A stretch of DNA of 30,300 nt from Candidatus Heimdallarchaeota archaeon. Its GTDB lineage: Archaea > Asgardarchaeota > Heimdallarchaeia > Heimdallarchaeales > Heimdallarchaeaceae. Every line of letters starts with the position of its first letter. The first letter of the stretch is position 1. The position numbers were made by a program, and so were the translations under genes. Where the stretch lies: the NCBI GenBank assembly GCA_030668825.1, contig DAOVET010000029.1, positions 1-30,300 of the forward strand. The letters run 5' to 3'. The notes under the pieces were generated by a model, which was not told where the DNA came from, did no database searches, and was given only the letters and a program-made list of their open reading frames with translations. Of the stretch, positions 465-29,823 are shown piece after piece.

Positions 465-1604
465 CTACTCGATTTCGATATAGGTTTCTTTTATTTTTGT
501 TTCCGCTTCGATAATTTCCTTTCTAGTATCTCTTCCTTTCTCAAGCACTTCCCAGAACCTCTCTACATAATCGGGATGAATTCCAGTTAGTACTCCTCGA
601 ATTGTTAAAATTGGTTCTTCTATAGAATTTAGAGAAACTTTTATGTCTCCTTTTTCGAATTTTTTGACTATTTTTCTTGTTTCAAATGTAGACTGATAAG
701 TTGTTGGCATTGTTATTGCTAAATAACCTAACTTAGCTCTAGTCACATCAGCTGTTAAACTTGAACTTTCATCTAATTCATTAAAGAAAAGATCAGAAAA
801 CCTTGTATTTTGAGCCTTCTCCAAAGTTTCAAATTCTTTATCAAGAGAAATAATTATGCCTAAACCTCTAGCATCTTTAGAGAATGATTTGAAGAAATCA
901 TTTAGATCCGCATAGAATTCCTCATGAGTACTTTCTTGAAGAGCTGAAAGAACAGTTGTAGTGAAGGTTTCTGCTAACAAATTATTGCTTTTTTCCAGTA
1001 CTGTTTCTATACTCTCATCTTCATAGAGTTTCAAGAGTTTTTCATTGTCAAATAATATGATTGGACAATGAGGACCAAGTGTGTCAAATCCGAGGTAATG
1101 TAGAGCTCTAGCAGAATTATATTGGACAAGTGAAGGTTCATCTTTTTCCGGTAATACGAAGATAACTGTTGGTGGTTCCCCTATTATATCAGCTAATAAC
1201 TTGCTAATAATAATGGTTCCAGCACTACCAGTACCGCCACCACTACCTATTATTAGGTGAAGAGCTAAATCGTCTGCATCTCTCCTTTCATCACGTTTGT
1301 AAAAGACAACTCTCTCCAGTTTAGATTTCATCTCCAGCTCTTTAGCTTTCAATTGTTTGTATGCTTTCTCAAAATCATAATCTGAGGAAGCAAATTCTTT
1401 TTCTCCAAACCAGAAGTTATCTGAGAAGTTACTGATTTTTGGTTCAAAATTATCAGCTAGATTCACTGCTAATGATTTTATGGCGATTTTACTTTCACGT
1501 AATTCTTGAATAAGTTTTTCACCTATTTTGCAACCTGCGTTACCAACACCTATAACTGATATAGATATCTTCTTTCGGAAGATTTTTCTTTTAAGCCAAG
1601 ACAT
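465..1604 (-). CDS. Tubulin/FtsZ superfamily GTPase, divergent CetZ-like, with N-terminal amphipathic helix
   Basis: T1 loop VIGVGNAGCKI; signature GSGGGTGSAG (nt 1218-1247); VLPEKDE...YNSARAL; T6 FDNEKL; T7-like FYADLNDF. GGAGGAGG Shine-Dalgarno lies within the end of the upstream gene. Confidence 0.88.
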   Translation of the reverse strand: MSWLKRKIFRKKISISVIGVGNAGCKIGEKLIQELRESKIAIKSLAVNLADNFEPKISNFSDNFWFGEKEFASSDYDFEKAYKQLKAKELEMKSKLERVVFYKRDERRDADDLALHLIIGSGGGTGSAGTIIISKLLADIIGEPPTVIFVLPEKDEPSLVQYNSARALHYLGFDTLGPHCPIILFDNEKLLKLYEDESIETVLEKSNNLLAETFTTTVLSALQESTHEEFYADLNDFFKSFSKDARGLGIIISLDKEFETLEKAQNTRFSDLFFNELDESSSLTADVTRAKLGYLAITMPTTYQSTFETRKIVKKFEKGDIKVSLNSIEEPILTIRGVLTGIHPDYVERFWEVLEKGRDTRKEIIEAETKIKETYIEIE

Positions 1605-3032: not shown

Positions 3033-4457
3033 TTGATAATATTGAGATTAACAAAAATAGTTTGCACAATAGGTCCTTCATCCAGTTCTGAGAATATTCT
3101 GAAAAAAATGATTGACAGTGGAATGGATTTAGCTCGATTGAATTTTTCCCACGGAAATCATCAAAGTCATGAAAAAACCTTCAATAATCTCAGAAATCTA
3201 TGCAATGATCTTGCAATTGGCATTGACATTAGTGGTCCAAAAATTAGATTAGGGAAGTTAGAGGAGATAAGAATTCTCAAAAGAGATGAAATTGTTAAAC
3301 TTACTACTAGGGACATAATTGGAAAAAATAATCTTATTCCAATCAATTATCCCATATTAACTAAGGAACTAAAAGTTAATACTTCTCTTTTCATAAATGA
3401 TGGTTTAGTTAGGTTGAACGCTGAATCAATTACAGATTATGAAATAGTTTGTAAGGTGATAGATGGGGGTGAAATTTCATCTAGAAAAGGTGTAAATATT
3501 CCAGATGCAGACTTATCTATAAGAGTACCAACTAAGAAAGATATAGTAGATATCGAAAAAGCTTGTGATTGGGAAACTGATTTTCTATTTATTTCATTTG
3601 TACGAAGCGTTGATGATCTTAAAAGAGTAAAAGAAATTGTTGAATCAAAAACTAGTAAAGACATTCAACTTATCGCAAAAATTGAACACCAAGATCCTTT
3701 AGATTCAATAAAAGAAATCGCTTCTTTTAGTAATGGTTTGATGGTTGCACGAGGAGATTTAGCTATTGAAGTAGGCCCTGCTAGGGTTCCTGTCTTGCAA
3801 AAACAATTAATCCAACTAGGTTTGGTTTTAGCTAAACCAGTTATTGTTGCAACACAGATGTTAGAATCCATGACTAAAGAACCCCTTCCTACAAGAGCTG
3901 AAGCAAGTGATGTTGCTCATGCAGTTTTTGAAGGAGCTGATGCTTTAATGTTATCAGCTGAAACAGCAACAGGAAGACATCCTCTCCTAGTTATGAAGTT
4001 AATGAAGGATATTATTTTAGAAGCTGAGAAAAACCTAGCTTTAGATCGTCCTTTAGTAGTTGATACTGAGGTTAATATTGGCAATGAAATAGGTATTTCC
4101 GCAGTTAGGTTGGCTAAGAGAATGTCAGTAAAAGCAATTATTGCTCTTACTCAGACTGGGTATACAGCAAGTATGGTTTCTAGAAATAGAGAAAATTTAC
4201 CTATTTATGCCGTTTCTCATAATCAATTTACTAAACGTGTAACAAGGTTATTTTGGGGTGTTCAACCTATTTTTCATAAGTATGAAGATAATTACGATGA
4301 GCTAGTATTCAATGTTATTAAGAAGCTTCATGAAGAAAAGTACATTGATGCAAAAGACAATGTTGTATTAGTAGCTGGATCAATGGTAGGAATCTCAGGA
4401 AAAACCCATACAATTCAGTTGTTAAATGTTGAAGAAACATTATCAACTGAGAAATAA
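3033..4457 (+). CDS. pyk: Pyruvate kinase
   Basis: TKIVCTIGP, RLNFSHG, GPKIR, KGVN, IAKIE, MVARGDL, ATQMLESM, PTRAE, DALMLSAETA. True start may be the TTG at 3042. Confidence 0.97.
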   Translation: MIILRLTKIVCTIGPSSSSENILKKMIDSGMDLARLNFSHGNHQSHEKTFNNLRNLCNDLAIGIDISGPKIRLGKLEEIRILKRDEIVKLTTRDIIGKNNLIPINYPILTKELKVNTSLFINDGLVRLNAESITDYEIVCKVIDGGEISSRKGVNIPDADLSIRVPTKKDIVDIEKACDWETDFLFISFVRSVDDLKRVKEIVESKTSKDIQLIAKIEHQDPLDSIKEIASFSNGLMVARGDLAIEVGPARVPVLQKQLIQLGLVLAKPVIVATQMLESMTKEPLPTRAEASDVAHAVFEGADALMLSAETATGRHPLLVMKLMKDIILEAEKNLALDRPLVVDTEVNIGNEIGISAVRLAKRMSVKAIIALTQTGYTASMVSRNRENLPIYAVSHNQFTKRVTRLFWGVQPIFHKYEDNYDELVFNVIKKLHEEKYIDAKDNVVLVAGSMVGISGKTHTIQLLNVEETLSTEK

Positions 4458-4524
4458 TCTCTTTTTCATGTAGCTAGCTGAAAAGTCTTAAAAATCCTTG
4501 CAACTAAATGCAATTGAAACAAAA

Positions 4525-5775
4525 ATGTCATGGATTCGTTCTATTTTTAGCAAAGGTAAGAAAAAATCAGCTGATGAATATCCTATCTTATTCAATGGCT
4601 TATACAGATTTAACCATTCGAACATTATAACTGATAAAGATCTGAATGGATGTGAAATTTCTGATACTCTATTTATTGAAGGAGATATAAAAGAATCACC
4701 AATTGGATTAGTTTTTGGTGAAAATTATGGGTTAAACATTCTTAAGAGTATGAAGAAAAGATTCAATGGTCAACTTCCCTCTTCACTTGTAATTACAACT
4801 CCATCTGGAGATTCAGATATCTATAGTAAACTTCCTTCAATTGAACTACCTTCTCTTTCCGAAGAAGAAATGACTTTTTTTCAAGGTAAGAAGTGGTATA
4901 CAGCAAATGAAGAAAGAATTAATTCTTATGTTGATAAATTGATCAGTAACAAATCATTAGTCTTTCTTTTCCCAGAAAATAATGCATTTGTTTTGGCTCT
5001 TTTTGAAGAAATAGCTCTGTATATCCTTTCTTCAAATAAACAGCCCGTTATGTTTGTACACTTGCCTGTTGCTAAAAAAAATATCATAAAAGAATTTTCA
5101 ATTATGACATTTATCTATGGTCTCTTAAGAAAATCTCAGAAGAATCATCTTCCCTATGTTCTAGTTGATGAAGAGAAACTCATCAAGAATAACCAAAACA
5201 AAGATTCAGAAGAAATTCTAGCTACTTTTGTCCAACGAGAAGCAAATCTAATAACAGATTTTATTATTGGTCTTCAACAGCCTTCAGAATTTTACCAAGT
5301 TGATCAAAGTAATTTCCTGAGAATTTTCAAAGATGCCAGAGGGATTTGCCGACTCATTAGTTTTGATGTATATGACAATAATCCTGAATTATCCCAACTT
5401 CTAGCAAAAATTGATGAAGGTGATAGTTTTTCATTAAAAACTAGAGCTACTAGAGGATTTTTCCTAATTCAACCTGGTCCTATTGGATTAACAACCGCAA
5501 GTTACAGAAGGATTAGAGAGAGATTCAGTAACTCAGATGTAATCTTCTCATTTCTACAAAAACGAGAAAATGGAGCAATTCTAAGAGGTATTTTAACTTA
5601 CAATATTTTACCCAGAGAAGTACTAAAACGTCTTGAAAATCTAGGAAAATTATTGATTAGCTTATATGACGAACTAGGTGATAGAATTATGTTTGAAGAT
5701 TCCACATTTTTAGGTGCAGTTTTCGATGCATCTAAATGGGCGATTTCTTTACCTGTTGTTGAGAAACTGAAGTGA
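4525..5775 (+). CDS. Degenerate tubulin/FtsZ-fold protein, paralog of 465-1604, lacking the GTP-binding signature
   Basis: Collinear similarity to 465-1604: HLPYVLVDEEKLIK vs HCPIILFDNEKLLK; EFYQVDQSNFLRIFKDARG vs EEFYADLNDFFKSFSKDARG; RATRGFFLI vs RAKLGYLAI; ILRGILT vs TIRGVLT; N-terminus MSWIRSIFSKGKKK vs MSWLKRKIFRKK. ATG 4525 is preferred over TTG 4498 because of the N-terminal match. Confidence 0.72.
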   Translation: MSWIRSIFSKGKKKSADEYPILFNGLYRFNHSNIITDKDLNGCEISDTLFIEGDIKESPIGLVFGENYGLNILKSMKKRFNGQLPSSLVITTPSGDSDIYSKLPSIELPSLSEEEMTFFQGKKWYTANEERINSYVDKLISNKSLVFLFPENNAFVLALFEEIALYILSSNKQPVMFVHLPVAKKNIIKEFSIMTFIYGLLRKSQKNHLPYVLVDEEKLIKNNQNKDSEEILATFVQREANLITDFIIGLQQPSEFYQVDQSNFLRIFKDARGICRLISFDVYDNNPELSQLLAKIDEGDSFSLKTRATRGFFLIQPGPIGLTTASYRRIRERFSNSDVIFSFLQKRENGAILRGILTYNILPREVLKRLENLGKLLISLYDELGDRIMFEDSTFLGAVFDASKWAISLPVVEKLK

Positions 5776-6009
5776 TTTTTCCAGTTCTTTTTTGGATTCT
5801 ATCAGTTCCAGGATTGAATTTATGCTGTTTAGAGCGATTTGTAGATACTTCTTATTACCAAACTTAGCCAAGTTTCTTCCAATGCGTAAAATATATAATA
5901 GCTCTATCTTAAATCAACTTAAATTAGTCTCATAAAGTTCATGCTGTTGTCATTAACTTTAAATATCTCTCGTGAGACGAAACAATGTATTGGAAAAAGA
6001 GGATTCACA

Positions 6010-9000
6010 ATGGACAAAAGACTTCGAACATTAATAGGCGCTTTTATTCTGACAGTTACCTTTAGTTCTGCTGTTGTGATTGGAGTAATTCTGCCGATTA
6101 ATTCTATAAATATAATGAACGATATTAATGCTGGCTTAACAGAATTTGGGCAGTTAACTGAAGATGATATAATACCTAATGATGGTACTGGTACATATTC
6201 TGACTGGATGCATACAGCTAGAAGTACCAATGAGTCAAGATTTTTTGATCAAGCATTTATCGAATTCTTTAATGTAAGTGATCGTGAAGGTTACTTGGAT
6301 TATAATACTCCAATTTCTTATTTCTATGTGCAAGGAGAACTAGTATTTGATATAATTATCAATAAAACGGTGTTTGAGTACAATAAGGAAGAGGATTATA
6401 TTGTATTTACTAGTAGAAGACAGTATATCTATAATTCTACAGCGTCCACATTATTTGGTAATGAGACAGTTTTGAATTTCAATTACATGTGGCCTTATTA
6501 TATTGAAAAGTTTGGAAATGGAACAGAATATGGTTTTCAAGCTTACATAGCCTCTTATCTCCTAGGATCTGAAATTGATCTTCTCAACTCAACATACACT
6601 TATAGTGAAATTGCATATGCAGTTTTGAACAGAGCTTATGCTGAGAGTGAAGGTTTAGTAGATACAGGAACATATCTACCTCACAATTGGATAAGTGTTC
6701 GTCCAGCTTTCCAAGATTTAGATATCGATCAAGCAACAAGCTATAAAATACTCTATAATGCAACTTATGGAGGTAATGATTATTCAGTATTAAGTGGAGA
6801 CAAAGGTTCTGCGAAATTCTTCTTGGATTTAGTAAGAGGATTAGATTATACTGAACCTGATGACCTAACCGTAGATGTTGTACAACTATTAGCTGACATT
6901 TACGACATTGATACTCCAACAGAAATTGAATCAGCAAAATCTTTTGCAGCATATTTGGGTTATCTTCTAGGAAAACCATCACTTGATTGGTTATACGATA
7001 ACAAAATATCATATGTCTGTACTAGAACTGCAATGGAATGGGTTGTTGGTGTCGAGGACCCATTGCTAAACGGTATGAAATTTCCATTACTTATGAATGA
7101 AACACTATCTTCATCGAGTGTAGATTGGGACAAAGACACTTATTATGCAGAAAGATTAGGTCTGAATAACATTGAAGAGATGGGTTCTATAATTGGAATA
7201 GCTAACATACCCTATTTTCAATACTCTAGATCAATGGATGTAGTTATGGAAGATAATCTTGCTTATGTTCTAGAAGGTGGAACAGATATCAAAATAGTAA
7301 ATACTACTGATTCACTCTTCAGAGCAATCGGTCAATATGGAGATTATGATGGCCAAATCTATGATTATACTGTAATTGATGGATATATCTATGCAGTAGA
7401 GGGAACTGCAGGTTTAGAAATTCTTAATGCAACAAATCCATACTCAATTGATCAAATTACTCAATGGAATTTTGGAAATAATGATATGAGAGATGTTACT
7501 AACGTATTTTATCCTATTGGTATTGCACCTTTCGATGCCTTAGTCATAGCTAACGGTAATTATGGAGTAAGAGTTGCCTCTCTTAGTGGTGATACTAAAT
7601 CTGTTAGTTCCGTTTATACATTCCTAAATACTTCTGGAGAAGCTATTGCCATAGATGCAAGAGTAGACATTGTAAATTCTGATGCTTTTGTTGCTCTAGG
7701 AACTGATGGTATTGATGTGTTAGATATAGGCCAAATTCTTACAAAGGATATTGAACTAGTATGGCATTATGATTCTGCTAACTACTCAAATCTAAAAGAT
7801 GTAAGAGATGTTAAAGTTGAAGGATTATATCTTTATGTTTTAGATGCAATCGAAGGATTACTAATCTTCCGAATAGAATCAAATAAAACCTTAACAGAAT
7901 ACAGTCAAATTGCTGCTTATCCTGGAGATGAGCCTTTCAATGACATATATATCGATGGAAACCAAGCCTACTTAACTCAAGGTAGTGATGGTTTTATGGT
8001 TGTTGATATCTCAGATAAACACAATCCTTCAGAAAATTACAGATTCAATGGAACTGATCATCTTGGAACAGCTTTTGGTATCTACGCTCATGGTAATGAT
8101 ATTTATTTAGGAGATTACGAACAAGGTCTAGTTCATTTAGAGTTTAGCTATCTTACTAGTCAATTTGATTTTGTTGAGAAGGATGAACTTCATACATTTG
8201 TTGAATGCTGGCAAAGAGATAGTAAAGTTCAATTTGGTTTATGGGATTTGGGTCCAGCTGCAGTAGATGCCGGAGTAGAGCCTTTTAGTTATACTTATGA
8301 CTCATTTGCTGTTCAACCAGATATAGAAAAAGGATTGAGACAACAATGGAATGAATTCTTCCTAAGGCCATTTGCTTATTCAGCTCTGGTAGATTCAGCC
8401 TTGTTCTATGAAGAAACTGTACACGTTTACAATGCACAATCAGGGTCGCCTTATCGTCAAATGGATAAGTATGATTTATATTGGATGCATGATGCAAACT
8501 TCTTAAATGCAAGCTTTATTCAGGTTGGAAAATGGAATAGTTTGTATAATATGAATTTAAAACCAAGAGATATGTTCTTAACATTCTCGTTACCAGGACA
8601 AGTAGGGAGAGATCCATTCCACATGCAATCAATGATGGTCGAGCCAGTAACAGGTAGTGTTGTTGAAAGAACAGATAGAATACAATATAATACATTTGCA
8701 ACCACTTTTCTCGAAGCTTTTAGTCTCCTTAATAGATCCAAATACACTGATTCTGTTCAAAACCTTCCTGTAATTCATCGATATCCAACTTGGCATCAAA
8801 CATTCACTGCATTACCAGGAAGTATGGCAACAATCTTTTGGCAAGAAAATATTCATTTTGCAACAAAGATATTTTATGACGCAATTAAAGAACAATTCTT
8901 AGACAGAATAAAAGGGGCAGATGCCTCTCGTACAATTGGTGCTTTTGGTTCTATGTTTATAGTTACTACAGGTTTCATCATTACTTCCGTAGTCCTTCAC

Positions 9001-9036
9001 AGATTTAAACCAAAAGAAGCGATTCCAGACAATTAG
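6010..9036 (+). CDS. CD36/scavenger receptor class B-like membrane protein with inserted LVIVD-repeat beta-propeller
   Basis: One TM helix at each end around a large sequon-rich ectodomain. CD36-like motifs FFNVSD, RTAMEWVVGVEDPLL, VEPVTGSVVERTDRIQYN, IFWQE. LVIVD-type repeats (e.g. DIYIDGNQAYLTQGSDGFMVVDISDKHNP) at ~7234-8150. ATG 6010 is the likely start; the ORF is open from 5941. Confidence 0.72.
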   Translation: MDKRLRTLIGAFILTVTFSSAVVIGVILPINSINIMNDINAGLTEFGQLTEDDIIPNDGTGTYSDWMHTARSTNESRFFDQAFIEFFNVSDREGYLDYNTPISYFYVQGELVFDIIINKTVFEYNKEEDYIVFTSRRQYIYNSTASTLFGNETVLNFNYMWPYYIEKFGNGTEYGFQAYIASYLLGSEIDLLNSTYTYSEIAYAVLNRAYAESEGLVDTGTYLPHNWISVRPAFQDLDIDQATSYKILYNATYGGNDYSVLSGDKGSAKFFLDLVRGLDYTEPDDLTVDVVQLLADIYDIDTPTEIESAKSFAAYLGYLLGKPSLDWLYDNKISYVCTRTAMEWVVGVEDPLLNGMKFPLLMNETLSSSSVDWDKDTYYAERLGLNNIEEMGSIIGIANIPYFQYSRSMDVVMEDNLAYVLEGGTDIKIVNTTDSLFRAIGQYGDYDGQIYDYTVIDGYIYAVEGTAGLEILNATNPYSIDQITQWNFGNNDMRDVTNVFYPIGIAPFDALVIANGNYGVRVASLSGDTKSVSSVYTFLNTSGEAIAIDARVDIVNSDAFVALGTDGIDVLDIGQILTKDIELVWHYDSANYSNLKDVRDVKVEGLYLYVLDAIEGLLIFRIESNKTLTEYSQIAAYPGDEPFNDIYIDGNQAYLTQGSDGFMVVDISDKHNPSENYRFNGTDHLGTAFGIYAHGNDIYLGDYEQGLVHLEFSYLTSQFDFVEKDELHTFVECWQRDSKVQFGLWDLGPAAVDAGVEPFSYTYDSFAVQPDIEKGLRQQWNEFFLRPFAYSALVDSALFYEETVHVYNAQSGSPYRQMDKYDLYWMHDANFLNASFIQVGKWNSLYNMNLKPRDMFLTFSLPGQVGRDPFHMQSMMVEPVTGSVVERTDRIQYNTFATTFLEAFSLLNRSKYTDSVQNLPVIHRYPTWHQTFTALPGSMATIFWQENIHFATKIFYDAIKEQFLDRIKGADASRTIGAFGSMFIVTTGFIITSVVLHRFKPKEAIPDN
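7234..8150 (+). repeat. About 7 LVIVD-type protein repeats (beta-propeller blades)
   Basis: Recurrent D-V-x-V-x-G-x-Y-x-Y-V-x5-G-L-x-I-x-D/N pattern roughly every 40-48 aa. No nucleotide-level repeat. Confidence 0.8.
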
Positions 9037-9178: not shown

Positions 9179-12100
9179 GTGGAAGAGGTAACAAACGTGT
9201 CTGAAAATTCAGTTACTAAGAAGATGTCTGCCGCTGCTTTTTTCAATGAAAATAGAGCAATTGCAGGCTTTGGAAATTCTATGCGAGCTGTGTTTACCAG
9301 CATACGCGAATTAGTTGAAAATGGCTTAGATGCTGCAGAAAACAGAGGAATAAATCCTAACATCTCAATTGATTTAAGAAAACTATCTAGTAGAGAGATA
9401 AATGAACTTCTTGATGTTAAACAATATAAGAAATTAGAGAAACACCTAGACTTCTTACAACTTACCTGTACAGATAATGGTACAGGTGTTCCTGGACATC
9501 TTATTGCTGATCTTTTCGGTAGAGTTCTCACAGGAACTAAGTATGGAGTTATTCAGACACGAGGACGTTTTGGTTTAGGAGCCAAGATGTGCTTATTGTA
9601 TTCCATGTCTTCTGTTGACCTCCCAGCTAAAATTAGATCAAGATATTTCATGGATGATATAACACATGAAATGCACTTAATGATCAACCTTGAGAAAAAT
9701 GAACCCATAATTATGGAGCAACGAGAATTTCTTCCGGGGGATGAGGGTTATCTTGAAGAAGCAGGAACTGAAATTTCAATTACATTTACTGGTGCATGGA
9801 ATCTCGCCAAGAACAGCGTTAGAGAATACTTTAGACAACTAGCAATAATCACTCCTTATTCCTATTTCCAAGTGAAAGTACCAGGTGATAAAGAGGGTGA
9901 ATATGAAGAATTCATTTTTGAGAGTGTTGTAGATGACATGCCCCCTCCTCCTCAAGTTGTCAAGATTCATCCATATGGGTGTGATATCACACAGTTCAAA
10001 TCAGAATTGAGCGTAAATAATGATAAAAAACTCAAAGAGTTTCTTGCAAATCAATTTATGGGAGTAACCAAAGAAATTGCTGAAGATTTCTTTCAGTTAT
10101 TAGAAATAGATCCCAATAAACATCCTAACGAGTTAACTTCAAAAGAAATACGTAGAATTGTACATGAAGGATTTGTGAAAGCCCATCAAGAAGCAAAAGA
10201 AGTAAAACGAAAACGTGATAGAGTTTTTCAGTTTGATCCACCAAAAGGGACAGCACTTTCTCCTCTTGGTGCAGGGAGATTGAAGAGAGGGCTTGAAAAA
10301 GAATTAAATCCTAAATTTGCTGAAGCTATTTCTAGACCACCAAAAGCTTATTCTGGACATCCGTTTGTGGTTGAAGCTGCCTTAGGTTATGGTGGAGGTG
10401 TAACAGAAGCTTCTCAACAACGAGGTGCTAATGTTCAAGATAATAAAATAATTTACAGATATGCAAACAGAATTCCTCTGATTTTTGGTGCAGGCAATGA
10501 TGTTATTAGTCATGTTGTTTCTTCCATAAGATGGAATGAATATGGTCTTACTAGACAATCAGATCCTTTAGCTGTTACAGTTTCAATAGTTAGTACAAAA
10601 ATACCTTTTCCAGAGACAAGTAAAGAATATATCTCCATTGTTCCAGAGATTGAAGAAGAAATAAGATTAGCTCTGCAACAACTTGGAAGAAGATTAAAGA
10701 CCTTCCTGGGTAGGGCTAAAAGAAGACGAAGAGAACATGCCAGATTATCACGATTCGTCAAATCTGCGCCTATAATTGTAGAAAATCTTTCTCAGATTAT
10801 TGAAGATGAAGGTATCGGGATGGCTGATTTTCGATTTGAGAAGAATAGAATTGCGTCTTCTTTAGCTCATGGCTCTCCTAAAAAAGCAAAGTTATTCATG
10901 CCCCTAGGACAAAGACTTTTCGGTCTAAATATTTGGTGTTCTACATCAACTCAAAATATATTAAAGAACAAGAATATCTTGTCAGTTTCTGATTTCCTAA
11001 TAACACCAACTAAGGATTTAATGTATATTTTAACACTTGATGAACAATCTATTTACAATATTAAATTAAGAACCATCTTTGAGTTAGATAAGGAAGGACT
11101 AAGTCCTCAATTTGACTCTAAAATCTTTGTTTCAAGAGCTGTAGAGAGACGATTCGACAAAAATTTTGTTTCATTAAAAGATGCTTTAAATCGAAGATGG
11201 ATTCAAAATAGTTACCATTATTTGGCTACTGAATCTGTAAAATTAAAAACAGTCTCTGGTCTTTTAGAGAAATTATTTGAGAACAAGAAAGATGAGCTAA
11301 TTAATCAACTTTTACTCCAAAACAGAAAAAATGATGGTTCAAAGACTTCTCCTAAAAGCGAATATGGTACTGATTCTCTAACTGCTAAAGGTCAATTGAA
11401 AATTGAACATTTATTCCCACCTTTCAAAGTCTTCAAGAAGCTATCAAATGAAATTCTAGCAGCTGATTTAACTGTTGAAGAGTTTATTTATCAAACACAA
11501 CTTCCAAATGGGATTAACTATCAACAGGAAATAACGGCGATATTCATTGATTACTTAAAAGAAGTATTCATTAAAATGTCAAAGAAGTTTCCTACATTCA
11601 ATGCTACAAACATAACTAAAATGACTCCTGATTGGACAGATGGATATACAAAAAATGCCTTTCACAGGAGAAAAATTAGAACAATTGAAAGCTTCATTAA
11701 CACTTCTACAGATGATCTTGTACAAGTTAAAGAAATGGAAAGGATTTTGTATTCAACCTATCTAGAACTCCTTGTTAAACAATCTCCATCAATCAATCTT
11801 TCAGCTTTTGAGTTTATCGAGAGTAAGGGGCTCAAAAATGATGAAGCTTTGGTGATCAAATCATTGGCAGCCAAGGGTATCAAATCTTTAGCTCAACTGT
11901 TATATTTTGCAGCTGAAGAAATTCAAGATAAGAAATTAGTTGATCTTGCAGAACTACTTATGAAAGAAACAAAATTCACAATTTTGTCTTCTCTGCAAAT
12001 ATCTAAAAAAGGTCATAATTCTAGTCATATTAAGATTATACCTAGTAATGTGGAAAAAGAACTGCACCGAAACCAGATCTTTAATTCTTCAACCTTTCTC

Positions 12101-15100
12101 TCTTATTCTTCACTGCAACTAAGAAAAATGGGTCTGAAGAAGAGAGAAGTTGACCAGATCAAGAAAACCCTTGGAACGCCATTACCAAAGTGGTTGGGAC
12201 AAGAAGAAATGCTAAAAGAATGTGGGGTTATTGTACTGGAGGAGTTGTTCTTCAATTCAGCTGAAACTTATTCATTATTAGCAGAGAAGAAAAAGAAATA
12301 TTTTGAATTAGCAAATGTTCTCAGAACACCTATTATATTCTCATTCCCACAACTTAGAAGATCATCCTACTTATTGAAAGAAGTGGGGATTAACTGCTTG
12401 GGTCGATTTCTGATTTGGCCTGATGAAGAATTAGCAAGTATATTGGGTTACAAAATAGAAGAAATAAAAGCAATGAAAGATGCTGTTTCTCTAGCTGAAA
12501 TTGAGAAGAATAGAAAAACATTCAGTAAACCTCTATCTCAGTTGAACAGTCTATTTCCACGATTAATCACTTATTTTGGAGGAACTGATGAAACCCTTCA
12601 AGATTTATTTTATCTCTACCCCTCAGAAAAAGTAAGTTTATCACAGGGATTATGGAAGAAAATTGATCACTTGAGCAAGCTTTCTCAGCTTGAAATTATT
12701 GAACTTGCACAATTATTCTCTAAGAACTCCAAGAAATTAGATGAAGCGAAAGAAGCTCTTCTAAGATTGAATGTAAGAAACATTATTACTATTAGACAAT
12801 TTCTAGACCTTATCCCTGAAATCATTGAATCTGAGCTATCAGCAGCTTCCCATAGAAAAATTATCTTAGAGCTCTATCATATGATTAAGAATCGAGATAT
12901 TGAGGAAACAAGTGACTTAAACAAACAAGTTCTATTGATTAGTGAATATGATGAGTTTGAAAGAGCTTTAAGTTTACCAATATCGAGAATTGGTAATCTT
13001 ACTTTACAAGAATATGAAGATTTACGAACAGAAAACATTATAGCTATACATCAATTATTTGAATACTCAACAAAAGAATTGAAATCTATTCTTAACAAAA
13101 CTGAAGATGGAATTAATCATGTATTCAAAGATTTCAAAATTGAGCAGAAGGGAACTAGTTTCTTTATCAAAGGAGAAAGAAGTCGGCTAAAATCCTTAAT
13201 TTCCTTTGAATATGAGGAATCTGAGCGGTTTTCCACTCATGAAATTGAATCACTGATTCTAGCAGGTTATGATTCAGTTGACAAGATTTTCTTCTTATCC
13301 CACCCCTTAACTTTTTCTGCTTCTTTAGTCCATTGGAATGTAATCGACAAGTTTAGAAAACTATTACGATCCCCACTCACATTAGTAGCTTGGGAGAAAG
13401 TTGTTAAGAAAAAAGTGCAGGATGAAGAAACTGAAACTATAAATGAAATTGATGAAATTCAAATCTCTACTCTTTCTACCGATCAATTGAACACACTTAG
13501 AAATAGTGGAATCTCTAGAATTGTTGATTTGCTGATCGTTAAGAAGGATATTCTTGAGTCTATCTTGAGTATTAGTCCAAAAGAAGCAGCTTTAATGCAA
13601 AGAAACTTAAGAATAAGTGACACTGGAACAGATCTTTCAGAGCTAGATATCTTTAAACCACATATTGTTGATATCCTAGAAGAATATAATTTAGTTACAA
13701 TTGAAGACCTTTATTTCTCCACTTCTGAACGCGAATGGACTGTTTCTGAACTTCCATGGAGGATAATTAAATCATTCAAACAAGTATTGAATTTACCACT
13801 GAAATATATCTCCGATATGCTGGATAAGGAACTTATTGAAATCCTGAAGAAAGTTGAAATTACAACTCTGCTAGGATTCATGCTTATCTCACCAGAGAAT
13901 TTAATGGAAAAAACTGGCATTCCAGATGAACGTTTTGAAAATATTAAGCGAGGACTAGCATTATCTGATATTTTGGGTACTTTCACACTGCCAAGTTACT
14001 ACATCCCCTCTCTAACATTTGAACAGACAGAGATTTTAAGAGGAAATAAAATTCCAACTATAGCCGATTTCATTCTAACATCGAATCAGAAATTAACCAA
14101 ATTGCTGGAAATCCCATCTAAAGATCTAACTGCAATAAAAAATTCGTTAACTGCTCAGACCATACAGGCTTCATATGAAGATAGGGGCATATTTGCTACA
14201 GAAACAAAGCTATTTGACAAATTAGAACAAAGACAATTAAGCCGTGATTCAATTATCCAATTTGAAAGATTTCAGACAATTCAAGAAATATATTATGTCG
14301 TAGAGGAAGAATTCTATCCATCAAACCCAGATTTGTGGTCGAAAGTATCAGCTGTTAAAACAGTGCTAGATTTACCATTAAGAATCTTCACTGAAATATC
14401 AGAATATTCGCTAGAGGTATGGGAACATAATAATATCAAGTATGTGCGCCAACTCCTCTTTTTACCTGATGAAGAAATAAAAGATCCAGTTCTCTATAGG
14501 TCGATCTCCACATATTCCTCTAAAATGCTAGAAATGCGTGCATTTCATTATTTTGCAAAACTACCATCATCCGTTTACAATTCTTCATTCTTCAGTAATA
14601 TAGTTCAAGATTTCGAAGAAAAAACTCTTTCAGATGTTGTGACTGATACTAAAGTTATTTCACTTCTACTCTCAAAAGATAAACAATCTCTTACTGATAA
14701 TTATAATTTAACACTCATTCGAGCTCTTCTCGAACTTCCTATCAGAATAACTCCATTTTTCAATAGAATCAAGAAGATTAGAAGAGAGGAGTACAAAAAT
14801 ACTAAAATTGGTGATGTATTTGACATCGATTTAGTAGACCATTCAGCTCTAGCTCCATTTTATAATAAATTGCAGGAAGTTGATTCTTTAAATAACATGG
14901 TTGCTGATTTGGCAGTTCCAATTTCCTCAATGGGATTGCCAAGAGAATTAGCTCTAAAATTAAGCAAATCATCAATTAACACTTTAATAGACTTCTTCTC
15001 AACACCAGTTAAAACCATTTCAGAAATAACAGGAATACCTCAAAGATATATTAGAGAAATTCAAGATAATCTGGATTATTCATTAATTCAATCGTTTAAA

Positions 15101-18100
15101 AAAGCTCAAACCCATGACATTATTGCTTCTGAACTCATAACAGATAAGCATATTGAATCCTTAAAGAAAATAGGTATTCTTGATCTTGAATCACTTTACT
15201 ACTCAGCTGAAGCACAGAACATATCTTCAGTTTTACCAGTCGAAAACTATGCAAAAGTGAAGGAAATTCTCTCAGGATCAATAAGATTTATTGGCTTCTT
15301 TGCCTCTGATGAGATCAAAAGGCTAGAATTTTATAATATTAATTCCGTTATAGATTTAGCTTTGCTAGACAAAAAAGAACTATTTCATATAACGCAGAAT
15401 CCAATTTACAAGGAATTTCATGCACTAGATATCCTTTCCTTAGATGAAGTTGCGGAGAAGAGAGCAGAAACCGCTCTATCTCTAGAATTATTGCCTTCGA
15501 TAGAGGAAGATTATCTTGAGAAGATTAAACAATTGGGTATAAACTCAATTCAAGATTTCAATTCTAGAATGTCTGAATTAAGGGATTCTCACCCTCATTT
15601 AGTTAAGCTTGATGTATTTCGTGATGTTCAGCTATATCTTTCATCAGTTGCCTTCCTTGGATTGAATAATCAACAAGTACAGAAATTAGTTTATTCTGGA
15701 GTGGGAGATATACTTTCATTTATTACTGAAGATGTTTCAACCATTGCAATAATTCTAGACACGGAAGAAACGGAAGTACGAAAGTACTTAGATAAGATAA
15801 GCTCTGAAAATCTTCTTGAAGAAATAGAAAAGAAAGGAGTAAAACTGACAGACTTTCCTGTTCTTTCCAAATCAACAGTGAACTATCTACTAAAATCTGA
15901 CAAGGATCTTGTTCAGGATGTCTATAGTCAATATTATCAAGCATTTACAATAGCTAATGTTTCTGATGATGTTCTGAGAGACTTCCTTAACAGCTGTAAT
16001 GTGTCAATTTACCGCATTAAGGAGTTATCACCAGAAACAAAAATAAAATTGTCACAAATGGGTATTCTTAGAGTTATCGATTTCTTATGCACTAATGACT
16101 CAGAATTAAAGAATGCTTTAGGTGGCAAAATTGGTAAAGATATTAATGAAGTTCGAAGGGGCAATTTCACTCTGATTAAGGGAACTGAACTGCTACTAAA
16201 TGAACCAATTCTCAATATTTTAAAGGATCTTTATTTTGAACCATCGAAGAAAACGGTTGAGGATTTGTTTGGGTTTGTTCCTGAGCATTTATTGCAATTC
16301 ACTGAAACTGAAAGAATAGAAAAAATCACCAATATATCATTTGTTGAGCAGTTGGTAAGTTTCCTGAGCTTGAGTACTCTTTCTCTTACATATTTTGATG
16401 TTGAAACCAAAGCAGTTCTTTGGAATATCGGAATTAAACATGTGATTGAACTAATCTCAACAAATATACAAGATCTCAAAGATATTCCTAGAGAAGTAAT
16501 TAGAGCTATAAGAGAGTTTCAACGCAGCTTCAATCTAAGTGTTAGAATGTCAGAAACATTTTCCCCATATATTGAGCAAAAACTTAGTTTACCTAAAGAA
16601 ATACGAGGAAAATTCAAGACCTATGGTCTAACCACCGCTCTATTCCTTTTTGATTTTATGCACCATCCTTTGTTTGAACTAACAAATAAAGAGAAAAATC
16701 TTCTAAGTACTGCTACAGCAAACTTATTCAAACCTGTTACTTGGTTAGTAGATCATTCGGATCTCAAACTAGAAGACTTAACTATTTTTAGAGATAAGAA
16801 GGCAAACAACATCATTTCTGCCCTCTTGATACTGGATGATGATAAACAATCAACTGATGCCAAATATTTCTCTGAACAGTTTTATTCCAAATTTAAAGAA
16901 GTGGTCAATGAGAACCTCTTCAAAATTAAACCTCCTGAATGGTCACTTAAACTTGCTGACTTAAATCTCATCAAAGATCAAAAACTTTTGAGGAAGCTAA
17001 AAACAGCCAAAATACTATATTTGGATGAACTGCTTTCTTTGGATAGTAGCATTATTGAAAATCATTCCGTGTATGAGGAGTTAAGGTCAATGCTACTCTC
17101 ACTTAAGAATTTCAGTGTTGCATCTATAGATGGCTTATCTGTAACTAATGTTAAGAAATTGAAACAAAACGGTGTAAGATATGTATTCCAGTTCTTATTA
17201 ATGCCTGTATCTTATTTATCCCAATTCATGAATGTAAGTGAAGAAAAAATTGAGGAAATAAAGCTAAACATTGATTTAGAAGTTCTAGAATCAAACGCAA
17301 AACTAGTCGGATTAGATATTCAACTTATTGGAAAATTAAATGATAAGATAAAGAGGGTTTTGATGGAACACGGGTGTGTTTCACTTACACAGGCTGCACA
17401 CCTTCAGATAAACGAGCTTCCTCTAACTGAAGAAGAGATGCAAAGTGTCAGAGAACTAGTCTCTATACTTCAAACTCCTATTACATTAATTGGTAAAGTT
17501 CTGAAAATGAGCAGAAAGAATGTTGACCAACTAGTAGACGAAAAAATATTCACATATACTGATTTGTTAGAAATACCTCAAGAAAAATGGCCATCTAGTC
17601 TTAAGAAGTTAATAACCAATCAGCAAACTGATCCCACATATCTGATTAAACAGTTATACGGCATCCAAAAGTTTGGTATGTCAGTAGAAGAACTAGGGTT
17701 GACCAAATCAGTTACAACTTCGATGTTACAAACAGGATTATCTACAGTGGATCATCTCCTTTATGTACCTGACACATATTTGACTTCTAAAGGCAAAATT
17801 AAACTTACTGATCTTCTTGAATTAAGAGACAGGTTGGGTAGAAGCGTTAGTATTTTACCTAATTTAACAAATGAGACAATTGAATACTGTTTGAGTAATA
17901 ATTATCAAATCATCGAAGACTTATTGATTTATTTCAAGGATCATCCGAAGAAAATACGAGAAGAAATTACTCCTTCCCTAAGAGCTATTAAGACAATTTC
18001 AGAAGTAGGATTTGTTAAATCATTATCTGAAACTGAACAAGATCTTCAGAAAAGAGGGTATTATTCTTATACCTCTTTACTAACATCCGCGAATTTTAAG

Positions 18101-21100
18101 ACAGATAAGGAGCTGTTTTCAAAATTCGCCCCTTATCTATTGGCCAATTTACGATTTCTAGATTTAGAATCTACTGAGTATAATAAATTGAAGCGTTCAG
18201 GTATTTTTACAATATCTGGTCTATTAGTAGTTTCACCAAAAACAATTGCAACTCAAACAAAAATGAGTATCTCAAAAATAACAACCACAATAGATTCAAT
18301 CATTTACGAAGAATTAAAACAAAAAATAGACGCAAATATAGAATCAGTTGATCGTGAGTTCTTCTTATTATCTAATAATGACAAAGACTTCCTTAAGTCA
18401 ATTGGAATTTATAGTATATCTGATTTGAACGAATATTCAACTTATTCTTGGTTAATTTCAGAAAATAAGCTCAAGAAGATCAAAGGTAAAATTGAAACAA
18501 TTTTGGAAACATCTATACTTTACTATCCAAACATAACCAAATTGACTATTTCAGAAATCGAGAAGCAATATTATGATAAAGGAATCTTTAGCATCCAAGA
18601 ACTTCTTAGTTCAGTTGATGAGACCGAAACTGAGAAAATTATTGTTTTTCTACAAGAGTTTGCTTCAGTGGATGAGCAATTGGACACCGAATATATTACA
18701 GCTGCTCAGCTCTTTTCCGAGACCGAATTAACTACGCTTTCGAAATCTATTCCTAAGAAGAACATTAAGCAGTTAAATGAGTTTCTCTCAGAATTGTATA
18801 AGAATTATGAAAAGATATCAGAACCTAATAAGAAAATTCTCAGGACACTTAAACATCCTCTGTCAGCCTTGTCGAAATTGACTACAAGCGATGTTAAGAA
18901 CCTTAACAAAAATAACAATTTCCTAATTATAGATATTCTTGTCAAATCTCAAACCTATTGGAATGATTTTTCGGCAAAACCAACAGGTTTTAAGGTTCTC
19001 ACATTGCTTTCAACATTGACATTAAGTAAAATTAGAAGCCAGATTAGAAAGCGCCCTGATATTTCATCTCTAGGCGTGTTTGATACTGAAACAATCAAAG
19101 AAATTAGCTCATATTATCAAACTATAGATGAAATTCTTTATGCAATTGAATCAGAAGATTATGAAGTTTCTAGAACTTTAATTAATAAGGTTCAGAGAAC
19201 ACTTACAACACCTGTTAAACTAATTATGGTCCCTAAACTCTCTCTTAAAGTTTGGAAGAAACTCAACTCGTCGAATGATACTGTAACAGATCTCTTAAAA
19301 CTCTCAGACAAGGATCTTTCTTCTTTCCTTTCAATTCCCCAAAATGATATCCCTAAGATAAGGAGTTCATTCAATGTAGAGAACATGATTAGAGAACCTT
19401 CCTTGAAATCCAATATTATTTTTTCCCAACAGGAAATAGAAACGCTAAACAATATAGGTTACAAAACATATGATCAACTAGTAGAAAACCTCTACTCTGA
19501 CAAAGCCATACCTAAGACAATTAAACCAAAAATGGCTTTTATTCAGACATTCGATATCAAGAAATATGAACCTAAACTCGATGAATCATTAACAATACTT
19601 GATTTACTCTTCCTCATTAATAGTACAGAAAACCTAGCTATAACTAAAAAACAGAAAGAATTAATCGAATCAACAGCAGATTTCTTTTTCTCCAGAGGGA
19701 CACAATTATGTACCATTCTGAACATTGACCCCAGTGCAAAGAAATCTCATTGTCCAGAAATGTCAATTGAATATTTACTTCTTCTTAAAAAATATAATAC
19801 GCAAATGTTTGATGAAATTTGGCGTAAATTACATGACAAAATAAAACCAACAATTGAATCACTTTTTTCCTCTCTAAATCGTTCTCCTGTAATATTAACT
19901 AAACTAACCGCTGATTCTATTCATCAAATATCCACTACTAAATATAAGAAGATAAGTGAGCTTCTATTGTTGTCCCGAAAACAACTATATGAACAGATTT
20001 CTGATAAGAATGTGCAACGTAATGTCCGAAACCTCTCTTTAGGTTTATTCCAAGAATTATCGCAGAATCTGACATCATTTCCATCTTCCCTTCTTACGCC
20101 AACTGAGATGAATACTCTCAATAGAAGTAATATCAAATCAATAGAAGAAGCTTTAGTCTTTCTTGAACAGAGTAAGAAAGGTGATTCTAAGGTTCTGATT
20201 ATTTGCAATAAAATAAGTAAAGTTATGGAAACTGACTTGACAATACTTCCAAGTATAATACAGGATAAAAGAAAATCAGATGAAGTAACTAGGCTGAAAC
20301 TGAGTAATGTGTATGATCTTCTAACCTTCTGTAAAACTACTCAAAAAGCAGAATCTAGAGCATTATGTTCAGATATTTTATATATGCTTAAATTTGATAA
20401 GATAACTCAATCAGTGAGTGATGAACAAAGCAGATTTAGCAGCTTCTTTAGAACGACTGAATACTTGCAGTTTCTAAAAAGGAAGAAAATTAAAACTTTT
20501 GGACCCCTTGTTAATCATGTTAAAATAACATCTGCTCAAGATTTGGAGCAGGAGTTCGAACAGATTCTATCAGCTTTGAGGGCACCGTTATCAATATTCA
20601 CACTTGATCAAACTCTCCTTAAGAAGCTAAGAGATTTGAATATTCATCAAGTAATAGATTTAATTTTACTTACAGATATTAACAAACAAATCAAATCAAA
20701 TTTAACTGAAAAACAACAAACAGTAATGCAAACCATAACTAAACAGCTTAATTTCATCAGTATTAATCAACTCTTATCAAGTTTATATCCTGTTTCGAAA
20801 GTTAGCTTTATTGATGAAAATTCAAGGAAACAATTAATTAGAACTGGATATTCTACAATTTCTCATCTAAACATATCTAATGAAATTCTTGCCAGCTCAT
20901 CTAAAATCAGAAGTTCAATCTTAGCAAAAATAAATCGAATACTTGATTCTCCAGTCTACTATCTGACAGATATGATTAGAGATAATCCTGGTAGCGTTTT
21001 TGCATTGTATGATAAGGGTATTTTCAACTTGTGGGGGGTTTATGCATACAACACAAAAGATTTGGCAAAAATCATCAAAATTACTGATAGACAGGTTAAA

Positions 21101-28515: not shown

Positions 28516-28660
28516 TGAGTTGTTGTCATCTTGTCATAATAGACAAGAGTTGTTGAACTTCTTTTTTAGAGGTCATTGTGGGTCTACACTCACTCTACGT
28601 GGATACATCACGTATCCTCCTACCCCGTTCACACTCCGCTTAGGTAGTGCTTTCGGATCG
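28515..28660 (-). ncRNA. Putative TnpB omegaRNA scaffold / IS right end
   Basis: Homologous to 287-421. Perfect hairpin GGATAC-N5-GTATCC at 28601-28617. Similarity ends at AACTCAT (28521-28515, - strand). Confidence 0.6.
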
Positions 28661-29823
28661 CTTTTAACTAAGATATTATATGCAGCATTGACATCAGCAT
28701 TGATTAGATGGCCTTGAGCTGAACGAAATAACCCTCGTTCTGTTCTTCGTCCAACATACTTTATTCGTTTCTTGGGAAACTCATTATCCAGAAAACTGCT
28801 TTTAGAAGTATATTGTTCAGGGATGAGCTCAACTTTAATTCCATGTTCAGCTGCTTTGTATTTCAGCTGGTTGATAATTCTCATGAAGGGAATGGCAACA
28901 AACATCTGAGTAATTTTCTTCCAGAAATGAACATTTTGTTTCCATTTTTCATTGTACCCGATGATCACTTCATGTAAGTCCCGTTCCACCCACAAGTCTA
29001 CAAGATACTTGGTGAGTTTATGAATGGCATCTTTGAGTTTTTTGCGCCACTTCTCGCGAAGATGATAATAGGCTGGACCATAGCTGAGTTTATTCCTTTT
29101 TTTCAATTGGTTTCTTTGTTGTTGCACATATTGCTCTTGTAATTGTGTCTGCTTTTTCAAATAATACTGGATAATACTTCTGATTCCTCTCCCGTGATCC
29201 TTGATAACAATTGGTTGAGTGCCAAGGTTATCCACAAAGGCTACAAAGTTGATAGACCCTAAATCGATAGCACCTTTCCTAGTAAAACGTTTTCGCTGTT
29301 TAGGTAAGACTTTCTCATACACTAGTTCGAGAGTGTAACCCACTCGTCGAGGGACAATTCTTACTTCTTTCAACGTGGTACGCGCTGTCAGTCGAGTTTT
29401 GTAGTAAAAGCCTACTTTCTTAGGAAGGACTAGCCAACCATTTTGTAGTCTCGCTTGCTGGTTGGTGAAGATAGCTACAACTTCCCCATCTTTAGCTTTG
29501 TAGTTAGGAGGTTGAGGCATAGCGAAGAACGCTGCAGGATTCTTTTTCCACTCCTTCAGTGCACGAAAATATCCTTTCCAATTTCTGCAAAGGAGCTTGA
29601 TTGTATGTTGTGCAGTATGTGCAGGAAGGGTTTTGTAACACGCTTCTTCCTTAAGTAAGGTGTTGAGGTCATAGTACACTAATAACTTGTTCTTCTTCCT
29701 CAACGATTGCTTTACTAGATAATTCGTTCGATTATAGAGGTTTTTCACTTGATGACAAAGTGTACTCAGAGCTTGATGATAGGAAAGTTCTATGCATTCT
29801 ACTCGTAGTACTTTTGTCATCAC
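28573..29823 (-). CDS. tnpB: TnpB (IS200/IS605 family, IS1341-like, no adjacent tnpA)
   Basis: N-terminal KNLYN and P.PP.YK; RuvC-I GAIDLG; IIGYNEKWKQ; LKYKA; PEQYTSKSS; RuvC-III NADVNAAYNI. Confidence 0.95.
   Translation of the reverse strand: MMTKVLRVECIELSYHQALSTLCHQVKNLYNRTNYLVKQSLRKKNKLLVYYDLNTLLKEEACYKTLPAHTAQHTIKLLCRNWKGYFRALKEWKKNPAAFFAMPQPPNYKAKDGEVVAIFTNQQARLQNGWLVLPKKVGFYYKTRLTARTTLKEVRIVPRRVGYTLELVYEKVLPKQRKRFTRKGAIDLGSINFVAFVDNLGTQPIVIKDHGRGIRSIIQYYLKKQTQLQEQYVQQQRNQLKKRNKLSYGPAYYHLREKWRKKLKDAIHKLTKYLVDLWVERDLHEVIIGYNEKWKQNVHFWKKITQMFVAIPFMRIINQLKYKAAEHGIKVELIPEQYTSKSSFLDNEFPKKRIKYVGRRTERGLFRSAQGHLINADVNAAYNILVKSDPKALPKRSVNGVGGYVMYPRRVSVDPQ

Follow-up and report, generated by a model that had tools for sequence, protein, structure and literature searches.

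A probable, highly divergent CD36-family membrane protein with a nested beta-propeller in a Heimdallarchaeal genome

CD36, SR-BI and LIMP-2 are the textbook eukaryotic receptors of the CD36 or scavenger-receptor class B (SR-B) superfamily, which take part in the uptake of lipids, in phagocytosis as recognition receptors and in sorting to lysosomes. In the CD36 ectodomain, the apex is described as sensing the ligand, with a pocket next to it and a tunnel that accommodates cholesterol esters and long-chain fatty acids, and SR-B ectodomains are described as carrying two to three disulfide bridges, whose conservation is treated under a Metazoa heading (PMC10715195). That recent survey of 279 SR-Bs covers Eukarya only; its main text reports expansions of the apex region, does not use the words "propeller" or "insertion", and does not refer to archaea, prokaryotes or Asgard (PMC10715195). 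On the prokaryotic side, limited structure-based homology with CD36 has been reported for PgfA, a protein implicated in lipid trafficking that interacts with a trehalose monomycolate (TMM) analogue and affects envelope lipids, and its DUF3068 family is described as exclusive to actinobacteria (PMC9678360). Here we describe a gene of Candidatus Heimdallarchaeota (assembly GCA_030668825.1, contig DAOVET010000029.1) located in a stretch of 30,300 nucleotides, hereafter the window, that very probably encodes a highly divergent member of the CD36/SR-B superfamily, by homology and by architecture, with a beta-propeller nested in its ectodomain. What is new is a CD36-family receptor with a nested propeller, and its occurrence in an archaeon; the remote actinobacterial relative PgfA/DUF3068 was already known.

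The open reading frame (ORF) spans 5941-9036 on the forward strand (1031 residues), within which the start was placed at 6010 (MDKRLRT...), with M1 and R6 invariant in an alignment of 31 sequences comprising the window's protein and 30 orthologues (alignment A1). Because the orthologues all begin at this methionine, the product is taken to be 1008 residues long (P0001). Its features are as follows.

6010..9036, + strand: whole gene, a CD36-like membrane protein with an inserted beta-propeller, 1008 residues, stop codon included (ORF, translation, orthologue start)
6010..6117, + strand: short N-terminal tail (MDKRLR) and first transmembrane helix, residues 1-36 (hydropathy; model helix)
6118..7215, + strand: N-terminal CD36-like ectodomain segment, residues 37-402 (hhalign, Pfam matches of orthologues, fragment model)
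6265..6282, + strand: FFNVSD motif, residue 86 (MAFFT alignment; F86 and N88 invariant in A1)
7024..7068, + strand: RTAMEWVVGVEDPLL motif, residue 339 (hhalign pairing)
7216..8205, + strand: LVIVD beta-propeller of seven blades, residues 403-732, placed immediately ahead of the GTDGxxF-equivalent motif
8206..8859, + strand: C-terminal CD36-like ectodomain segment, residues 733-950 (hhalign, language-model neighbours, Pfam matches of orthologues)
8296..8307, + strand: YDSF, equivalent of the CD36-family GTDGTQF / GTDGDSF motif (hhalign and MAFFT)
8638..8691, + strand: VEPVTGSVVERTDRIQYN motif, with VEPVTG at residue 877 and RIQYN at residue 890, nucleotide 8677 (hhalign and MAFFT)
8833..8847, + strand: IFWQE motif, residue 942, aligned to P(I/L)xW(L/V)E (hhalign and MAFFT; W944 invariant)
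8860..9033, + strand: juxtamembrane helix, second transmembrane helix and short basic tail, residues 951-1008 (model helix; hydropathy)

Hydropathy and the AlphaFold model agree on the hairpin topology of CD36, with one helix at each end, short tails and a large ectodomain of ~940 residues. With a Kyte-Doolittle 19-residue mean above 1.6 as the criterion, there are only two hydrophobic stretches, their windows beginning at residues 5-18 and at 976-979; the model places long helices at 3-47 and 953-999. The outer flanks are basic (KRLR before the first helix, HRFKPK after the second), both short tails are predicted to be cytoplasmic, and R974, T975, G977, A978 and F979 are invariant at the second transmembrane region. 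The protein has 17 N-x-S/T sequons against 7.9 +/- 2.5 expected; 2 of 2000 shuffles attain 17, and the other 30 A1 members have 10-18. Cysteines are few, two in the window's protein (337 and 733) and one to three in the others. In NCBIfam, neither the whole protein nor its last 78 residues match a C-terminal sorting signal or any other model. The N-terminal segment consists of long beta-strands at 78-159 and a helical region at 161-333, followed by a strand and the RTAMEW motif. The original prediction, made from the letters of the window alone, had read this gene as a CD36/SR-B-like receptor on the grounds of two terminal transmembrane helices with short tails, at least 15 sequons, four motifs in CD36 order and about seven LVIVD repeats that split the ectodomain. 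The helices and the sequon count are borne out by the values above, the motif strings do lie at 6265, 7024, 8638/8677 and 8833, and the repeats form the seven-bladed propeller at residues 403-732.

At the level of sequence, the link between this protein and CD36 needs its orthologues and intermediates from other Asgard genomes. When 400 Asgard genomes were scanned with the Pfam CD36 model (PF01130, gathering score 26.5 bits), 34 matched at E<=0.01 and 28 exceeded the cut-off, with up to 238 bits (E 3.6e-71). The view of CD36 as a purely eukaryotic family, given as background in the original prediction, must be corrected in the face of these clearer members in 28 of 400 genomes and of the limited homology reported for DUF3068/PgfA (PMC9678360). 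The strong Asgard ORFs are uninterrupted and 607-1368 residues long (PF01130 E 1e-28 to 1e-71); most match the model in two parts, at about 3-190 and then about 123-462, and they contain extra sequence, about 240 residues in genome G203 for example. Hairpin topology and classical motifs can be read straight from their translations, and a profile of 11 such canonical proteins (A2) matches human LIMP-2 at E 6.5e-74 and CD36 (5lgd) at E 5.9e-67. Pfam scans of six proteins, five canonical Asgard ones and the eukaryotic P0050, found no LVIVD propeller.

Several further observations concern these canonical proteins. Their genes were seen in genomes G010, G041, G042, G049, G050, G055, G078 and G172-G277 (loci L001-L017), and some Asgard genomes hold two to four CD36 matches, a few of which lie in tandem on a single contig (G264:C33, G274:C4). 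Two of the proteins are named "hypothetical protein" at NCBI, and word-indexed protein searches with a canonical Asgard protein and with A2 returned four proteins, one of them eukaryotic. The C-terminal part of canonical Asgard CD36 also weakly touches the PorA/DUF3068 model PF11271 (up to 32.5 bits in P0047; cut-off 29.5) and the NCBIfam PgfA model NF053601 (E 3.5e-4); the proteins concerned are P0047, P0048 and the ORFs at L013 and L017. At the sequence level, these matches are a bridge from CD36 to the PgfA family.

Three kinds of comparison tie the propeller-bearing family to the canonical one. Profile-profile alignment of A1 with A2 by hhalign gave E 1.4e-5 over the C-terminal 196 columns when A1 was left uncut; with A1 cut into parts, three colinear segments were obtained, namely A1 4-193 with A2 5-179 (E 1.8e-4, score 44.0, probability 48%), A1 298-405 with A2 577-699 (E 2.8e-4, score 42.6, probability 41%) and A1 764-1000 with A2 709-912 (E 2.4e-6, score 55.9, probability 89%). 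Control scores were 17.0 and 21.2 with a reversed template and at most 26.1 and 20.9 in 20 column shuffles per query. Independently, MAFFT E-INS-i, run on 24 full-length sequences, brought four of the five motif blocks into register between the propeller family, canonical Asgard CD36 and one eukaryotic LIMP-2-like protein: FFNVSD, which contains the invariant sequon asparagine N88, with WNLTN (canonical Asgard) and FFNVTN (eukaryotic); YDSF, where T762 and Y763 are nearly invariant, with GTQF; H....VEPxTG....RxQxN; and FWQE with xxWxE. The fifth block, RTAMEW in RTAMEWVVGVEDPLL, was left unaligned by MAFFT and is paired by hhalign with TRTVxEWLFxxxDxLL of canonical Asgard CD36. Both methods align VEPVTGSVVERTDRIQYN with VEPxTGxxMxAxxRxQIN of canonical Asgard and eukaryotic sequences, and H871 (ahead of the motif), E878, G882, D889 and R890 are invariant there; the N-terminal FxNxT and C-terminal VEPxTG...RxQxN blocks are found, in colinear order, by hhalign and MAFFT alike and contain residues invariant in A1. 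Since the reversed and shuffled controls stay low and the motifs align independently, the resemblance is more than chance.

The orthologues contribute direct Pfam evidence as well. PF01130 was seen in 7 of the 10 scanned first and matches 19 of the 31, all of them A1 members, at E<=0.1; two of these reach the cut-off, just (P0008, 27.1 bits; P0009, 27.3 bits). The matched stretches are colinear; in P0008, for instance, residues 105-268 match model positions 74-223 and residues 874-911 match 365-402. Among the protein-language-model neighbours of residues 735-975, 17 of 30 are CD36 clusters (top score 0.91, 190 shared features). In a structure search with the fragment model, LIMP-2 and CD36 rank first, with weak matches, and the entries below them match mostly its single N-terminal helix. 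Both ectodomain segments, for which the original prediction had asked whether any profile or structural match to CD36 exists, have profile matches, accompanied by these weak structural ones.

Several results nevertheless weigh against CD36 membership. The window's own protein, whole or as N- and C-terminal pieces, has no PF01130 match at E<=10, a PF01130 scan of its genome gave 0 matches, and it reaches only E 0.019 against an Asgard CD36 hidden Markov model. No CD36 or LIMP-2 chain came up when the PDB was searched with the protein by itself (phmmer) or with the family profiles A1, A3 and A4, and a C-terminal profile run against 1.84 billion representatives found seven clusters, all of the protein's own family and none an intermediate. 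The hhalign probabilities of 48%, 41% and 89% are moderate, and with two cysteines here the disulfide bridges of SR-B ectodomains, two to three in number, are not conserved. If there were no true relationship, the gene would encode a two-helix membrane protein peculiar to its lineage, with a propeller and with short motifs that resemble those of CD36 by chance, and the failed direct searches and the weakness of the structural matches are what one would cite for it. We regard this as very improbable, given three colinear profile-profile matches far above their controls, the PF01130 matches of 19 of the 31 orthologues at consistent positions, four motif blocks aligned independently, LIMP-2 and CD36 as the top structural matches of the fragment model, and CD36 clusters as language-model neighbours. 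The CD36/SR-B-like reading therefore stands through the orthologues and the Asgard intermediates, although the protein that first suggested it fails the Pfam model.

The N-terminal-only model is poor (pLDDT, the predicted local distance difference test, 52.7), the C-terminal barrel part is poorly modelled, and a search of the ESM Atlas with residues 40-405 gave no usable match. The only matches from the sequence searches of the PDB were Vps4 MIT and p85 SH2 fragments, which are at chance level (E about 0.1-1). For the whole-protein AlphaFold model, built with A1 as alignment (mean pLDDT 71.6, predicted template-modelling score 0.55), PDB comparison by Foldseek and VIA-align returned beta-propellers only, a result that has no bearing on the CD36 fold. 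The same model has 28 strands between residues 408 and 724, forming seven blades with pLDDT mostly 80-96, and the model and the structure-search matches both identify the middle domain as a beta-propeller. Against Pfam LVIVD (PF08309, gathering score 20.2) the whole protein scores 25.6 bits and the excised residues 428-740 score 31.3 bits, and 29 of the 31 orthologues match the model at E<=0.1.

The point of insertion can be located from the profile alignment. Residues up to 405 pair with the canonical Asgard proteins as far as column 699 (the "...itvW" strand), and pairing resumes from residue 764 with column 709 (GTDGTQF); the same site in LIMP-2 reads WW...NGTDGDSFHP. Since residues 405 and 764 pair with columns 699 and 709, the propeller and its linkers fill one loop, and the LVIVD propeller is a genuine insertion in a loop of the CD36-like ectodomain, as the original prediction had suspected. 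The insert of the canonical Asgard proteins lies elsewhere: their Pfam match breaks at CD36 model positions of about 125-190, and the gap between canonical columns 179 and 577 corresponds in hhalign to merely residues 193-298 of the window's protein. The gene offers a clean natural case of a domain nested within a loop of another domain, in a membrane receptor.

The family is confined to a narrow group. Of 41 matches in a word-indexed protein search, 38 belong to the same family, the window's own protein included (43-100% identity, mostly about 1000 residues), and three match in the LVIVD part only; the nearest LVIVD-only proteins have 26-34% identity over 11-30% of the query. The named members come from metagenome-assembled genomes of Candidatus Heimdallarchaeota or Heimdallarchaeaceae, apart from one partial sequence labelled Thorarchaeota, which agrees with the archaeal origin that had been read from the window. 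When the 400 genomes of the phylum were scanned with a profile of the N-terminal 405 residues (A3, 19 sequences), a single copy of the propeller form turned up in the window's own genome and in each of 27 among the 30 remaining genomes of its family (f1), 28 of 31 together, and in 0 of 369 genomes of other families. Strong canonical CD36 genes occur in the same order in 1 of 1 genomes of family f2, 2 of 3 of f3 and 4 of 12 of f4, in 1 of 2 genomes of f6 in the same class, and in 20 of 135 of f20 elsewhere in the phylum; in f1 genomes there are none, with weak matches in 5 of 30 only. The propeller form and canonical CD36 are complementary in their phyletic distribution.

In a maximum-likelihood tree (LG+F+G4, 553 columns), the propeller family forms one clade beside that of f2, a family of the same order. 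Support for this position is modest (78/75), the branch leading to the clade measures 2.46 substitutions per site, and the data contain a single eukaryotic sequence. All of this tells against leaning on the placement heavily, and with one eukaryote the tree has no bearing on the origin of the eukaryotic family. From the phyletic distribution and the tree, we think it rather more probable than otherwise that the propeller gene of f1 is a remodelled descendant of a canonical Asgard CD36 gene and stands in its place. The sequencing runs that contain this DNA are labelled as cold-seep or marine-sediment metagenomes; 15 hold at least half of the sampled words, and six of these runs are possibly its source. 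A further two carry an RNA-Seq label and are marked as probably DNA; the short contigs from them spread evenly over 20 kb.

By analogy with CD36, SR-BI, LIMP-2 and PgfA, the protein would sit at the cell surface as a glycosylated receptor. Its membrane-distal helical region and propeller would dock a ligand, be it a particle, a polymer or the surface of a partner cell, and the CD36-like core would then relay hydrophobic molecules between what has been docked and the membrane's outer leaflet, in either direction. As an overall account, a divergent CD36-type surface receptor with propeller docking and hydrophobic-molecule transfer is the best explanation we can offer, and we hold it with moderate confidence; the transfer of lipids or other hydrophobic molecules, taken by itself, is a more tentative proposal drawn from the characterized relatives. 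A lipid-scavenging or adhesion role, as put forward in the original prediction, is likewise an inference. The gene neighbourhood, which is conserved and of housekeeping character (pyruvate kinase, topoisomerase VI), gives no functional hint, and this too counts against a confident assignment; comparison of the window with five canonical-CD36 loci revealed no synteny.

Two other functions deserve to be weighed against this account. The protein could be an adhesin or a structural envelope protein, in which the CD36-like core is a mere anchored scaffold that presents the propeller for contacts with cells, minerals or the S-layer and transfers no lipid. In favour of this, proteins on the surface of archaea and bacteria have been reported to carry LVIVD repeats (PMC2447325), divergence of the core has gone so far that the window's protein escapes the Pfam CD36 model, and both the 17 sequons and a single-copy gene nearly universal in its family would suit an envelope component. 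The pattern of conservation speaks otherwise, being strongest in the helical region 161-333 (mean 0.76) and weakest in the propeller (0.59): the CD36-like parts stand at 0.71-0.76, and between the most distant pair identity is 56% in the N part and 42% in the C part but 33% in the propeller. Moreover, H871, E878 and R890, which are shared with the canonical Asgard and eukaryotic motifs, are invariant. The invariance of these shared motifs and the higher conservation of the core argue for a retained core function, and we consider a pure adhesin or structural role rather unlikely, if the stronger of the two competitors.

The other proposal is that the protein acts as an outward trafficking factor in the manner of mycobacterial PgfA, handing membrane-derived lipids or lipid-linked glycans to the surface with no uptake. 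PgfA is the sole functionally studied prokaryotic protein with reported, limited CD36 homology, and it is periplasmic and implicated in TMM transport and envelope composition (PMC9678360). The weak contacts of canonical Asgard CD36 with PF11271 and NF053601 noted above would fit such a role, and near-universal presence in single copy would suggest a housekeeping one. Yet the window's protein and the 31 orthologues scanned match neither PF11271 (at E<=0.1, it is not among the five Pfam families that the orthologues match) nor NF053601, sequence does not tell which way transfer would run, and we know of no outer membrane in these archaea that could serve as the destination of the lipids. An exclusively outward role is thus, in our judgement, unlikely.

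Several other genes of the window merit brief description. Directly upstream of the CD36-like gene lies a gene for 425 residues (4498-5775, +), kept in 20 of the 22 loci having upstream sequence and absent at the corresponding place in loci L023 and L041; it has no Pfam or NCBIfam match, but about 180 residues at its C-terminal end (BLASTP E 8e-12) mark it as a paralogue of the gene at 465-1604 (-), which is of the tubulin/FtsZ family. A contig record of run X7 joins position 6402 to 4344 with 15 other letters between them, loose ends occur at 4364 and 6385, and a co-occurring strain may differ around the 425-residue gene (window about 4344-6402). Downstream, topoisomerase VI subunit B (9179-21760, +) is a giant of 4193 residues, followed with a 4-nucleotide overlap by subunit A (21757-23166, +). 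Its first 520 or so residues comprise the GHKL and transducer domains (Topo-VIb_trans E 3.5e-53), and the extension of about 3650 residues has repeated matches of helix-hairpin-helix type (RAD51D_N E 8.4e-20; RNA_pol_A_CTD) and is kept in related genomes at 33-86% identity. The giant gene lies downstream of the CD36-like gene in 19 of 24 loci and inverted upstream of it in four. Further along, an Alba-family chromatin protein (23250-23666, -) has a lysine-rich N-terminal extension with a weak match to histone H1-like HC2, and a Ras-family small GTPase (25568-26167, +; E 8.2e-36) overlaps by 4 nucleotides a HEAT-repeat protein of 783 residues (26164-28515, +), an arrangement that looks like a co-transcribed pair. 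Close to the end of the window is a gene of TnpB / IS605 OrfB type (28573-29823, -) with Cas12f1-like TNB and OrfB_IS605 domains, copies of which, 60-82% identical, stand at other positions in four related loci.

As for precedent, no report of archaeal or Asgard CD36-family proteins was found in the literature among the matches listed, although the tables of eukaryotic signature proteins of Liu et al. 2021 or bioRxiv supplements could still list the family. Four supplementary files of Eme et al. 2023 contain no CD36, IPR002159, PF01130, scavenger or LIMP, and the main text of a 2026 preprint on structural clustering has no CD36, scavenger, LIMP, "lipid transfer" or SCARB (PMC13734099). Precomputed Pfam labels already give PF01130 on some of these proteins, and the presence of the family is therefore latent in databases, even if undiscussed in print. 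The present analysis shows strong CD36 members in 28 of 400 Asgard genomes and a remodelled propeller version in one family of the Heimdall group. If the family is vertically shared with eukaryotes, a surface lipid-handling receptor would join the eukaryotic signature proteins, and the question of how the archaeal ancestor interacted with its partners, and perhaps took lipids from them, would become directly testable. One may go further and suggest that CD36-type receptors of Asgard archaea already shuttle lipids or other hydrophobic molecules to and from the cell membrane, exchanging them with external particles or partner cells, and that the Heimdallarchaeaceae form added the propeller as a dedicated docking platform. 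This is a speculative extension that we rate as improbable; if true, it would supply a concrete protein route for lipid uptake by the archaeal host from bacterial partners.

In comparison with known systems, the protein resembles the LVIVD cell-surface proteins (PF08309) in its middle domain, which passes the LVIVD model and adopts the seven-bladed propeller fold, and differs from them in that this propeller is neither free-standing nor terminal but nested in a loop of another domain. With PgfA (MSMEG_0317) and LmcA, of the actinobacterial DUF3068/PorA family, it would share the character of a prokaryotic envelope protein with a link to CD36; it differs in matching neither model of that family (PF11271, NF053601), which has no propeller. 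The likeness to eukaryotic CD36, SR-BI and LIMP-2 (SCARB2) is broader and comprises two terminal transmembrane helices with short tails, a sequon-rich ectodomain, the colinear series FxN(V/L)(S/T), TRTxxEW, GTDGxxF-like, H....VEPxTG....RxQxN and xxWxE, and weak structural matches of the N-terminal fragment model, among which LIMP-2 and CD36 come out on top. What sets it apart from these receptors is an archaeal host, a sequence that the Pfam model misses, and 330 residues of seven-bladed LVIVD propeller ahead of the GTDGxxF-equivalent motif. Closest of all are the canonical Asgard CD36 proteins, from the same phylum and partly the same order, with the same hairpin topology and three colinear profile-profile matches. 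Whereas those proteins match PF01130 strongly and carry another insert at another place, the propeller form has diverged, and its insert is the propeller.

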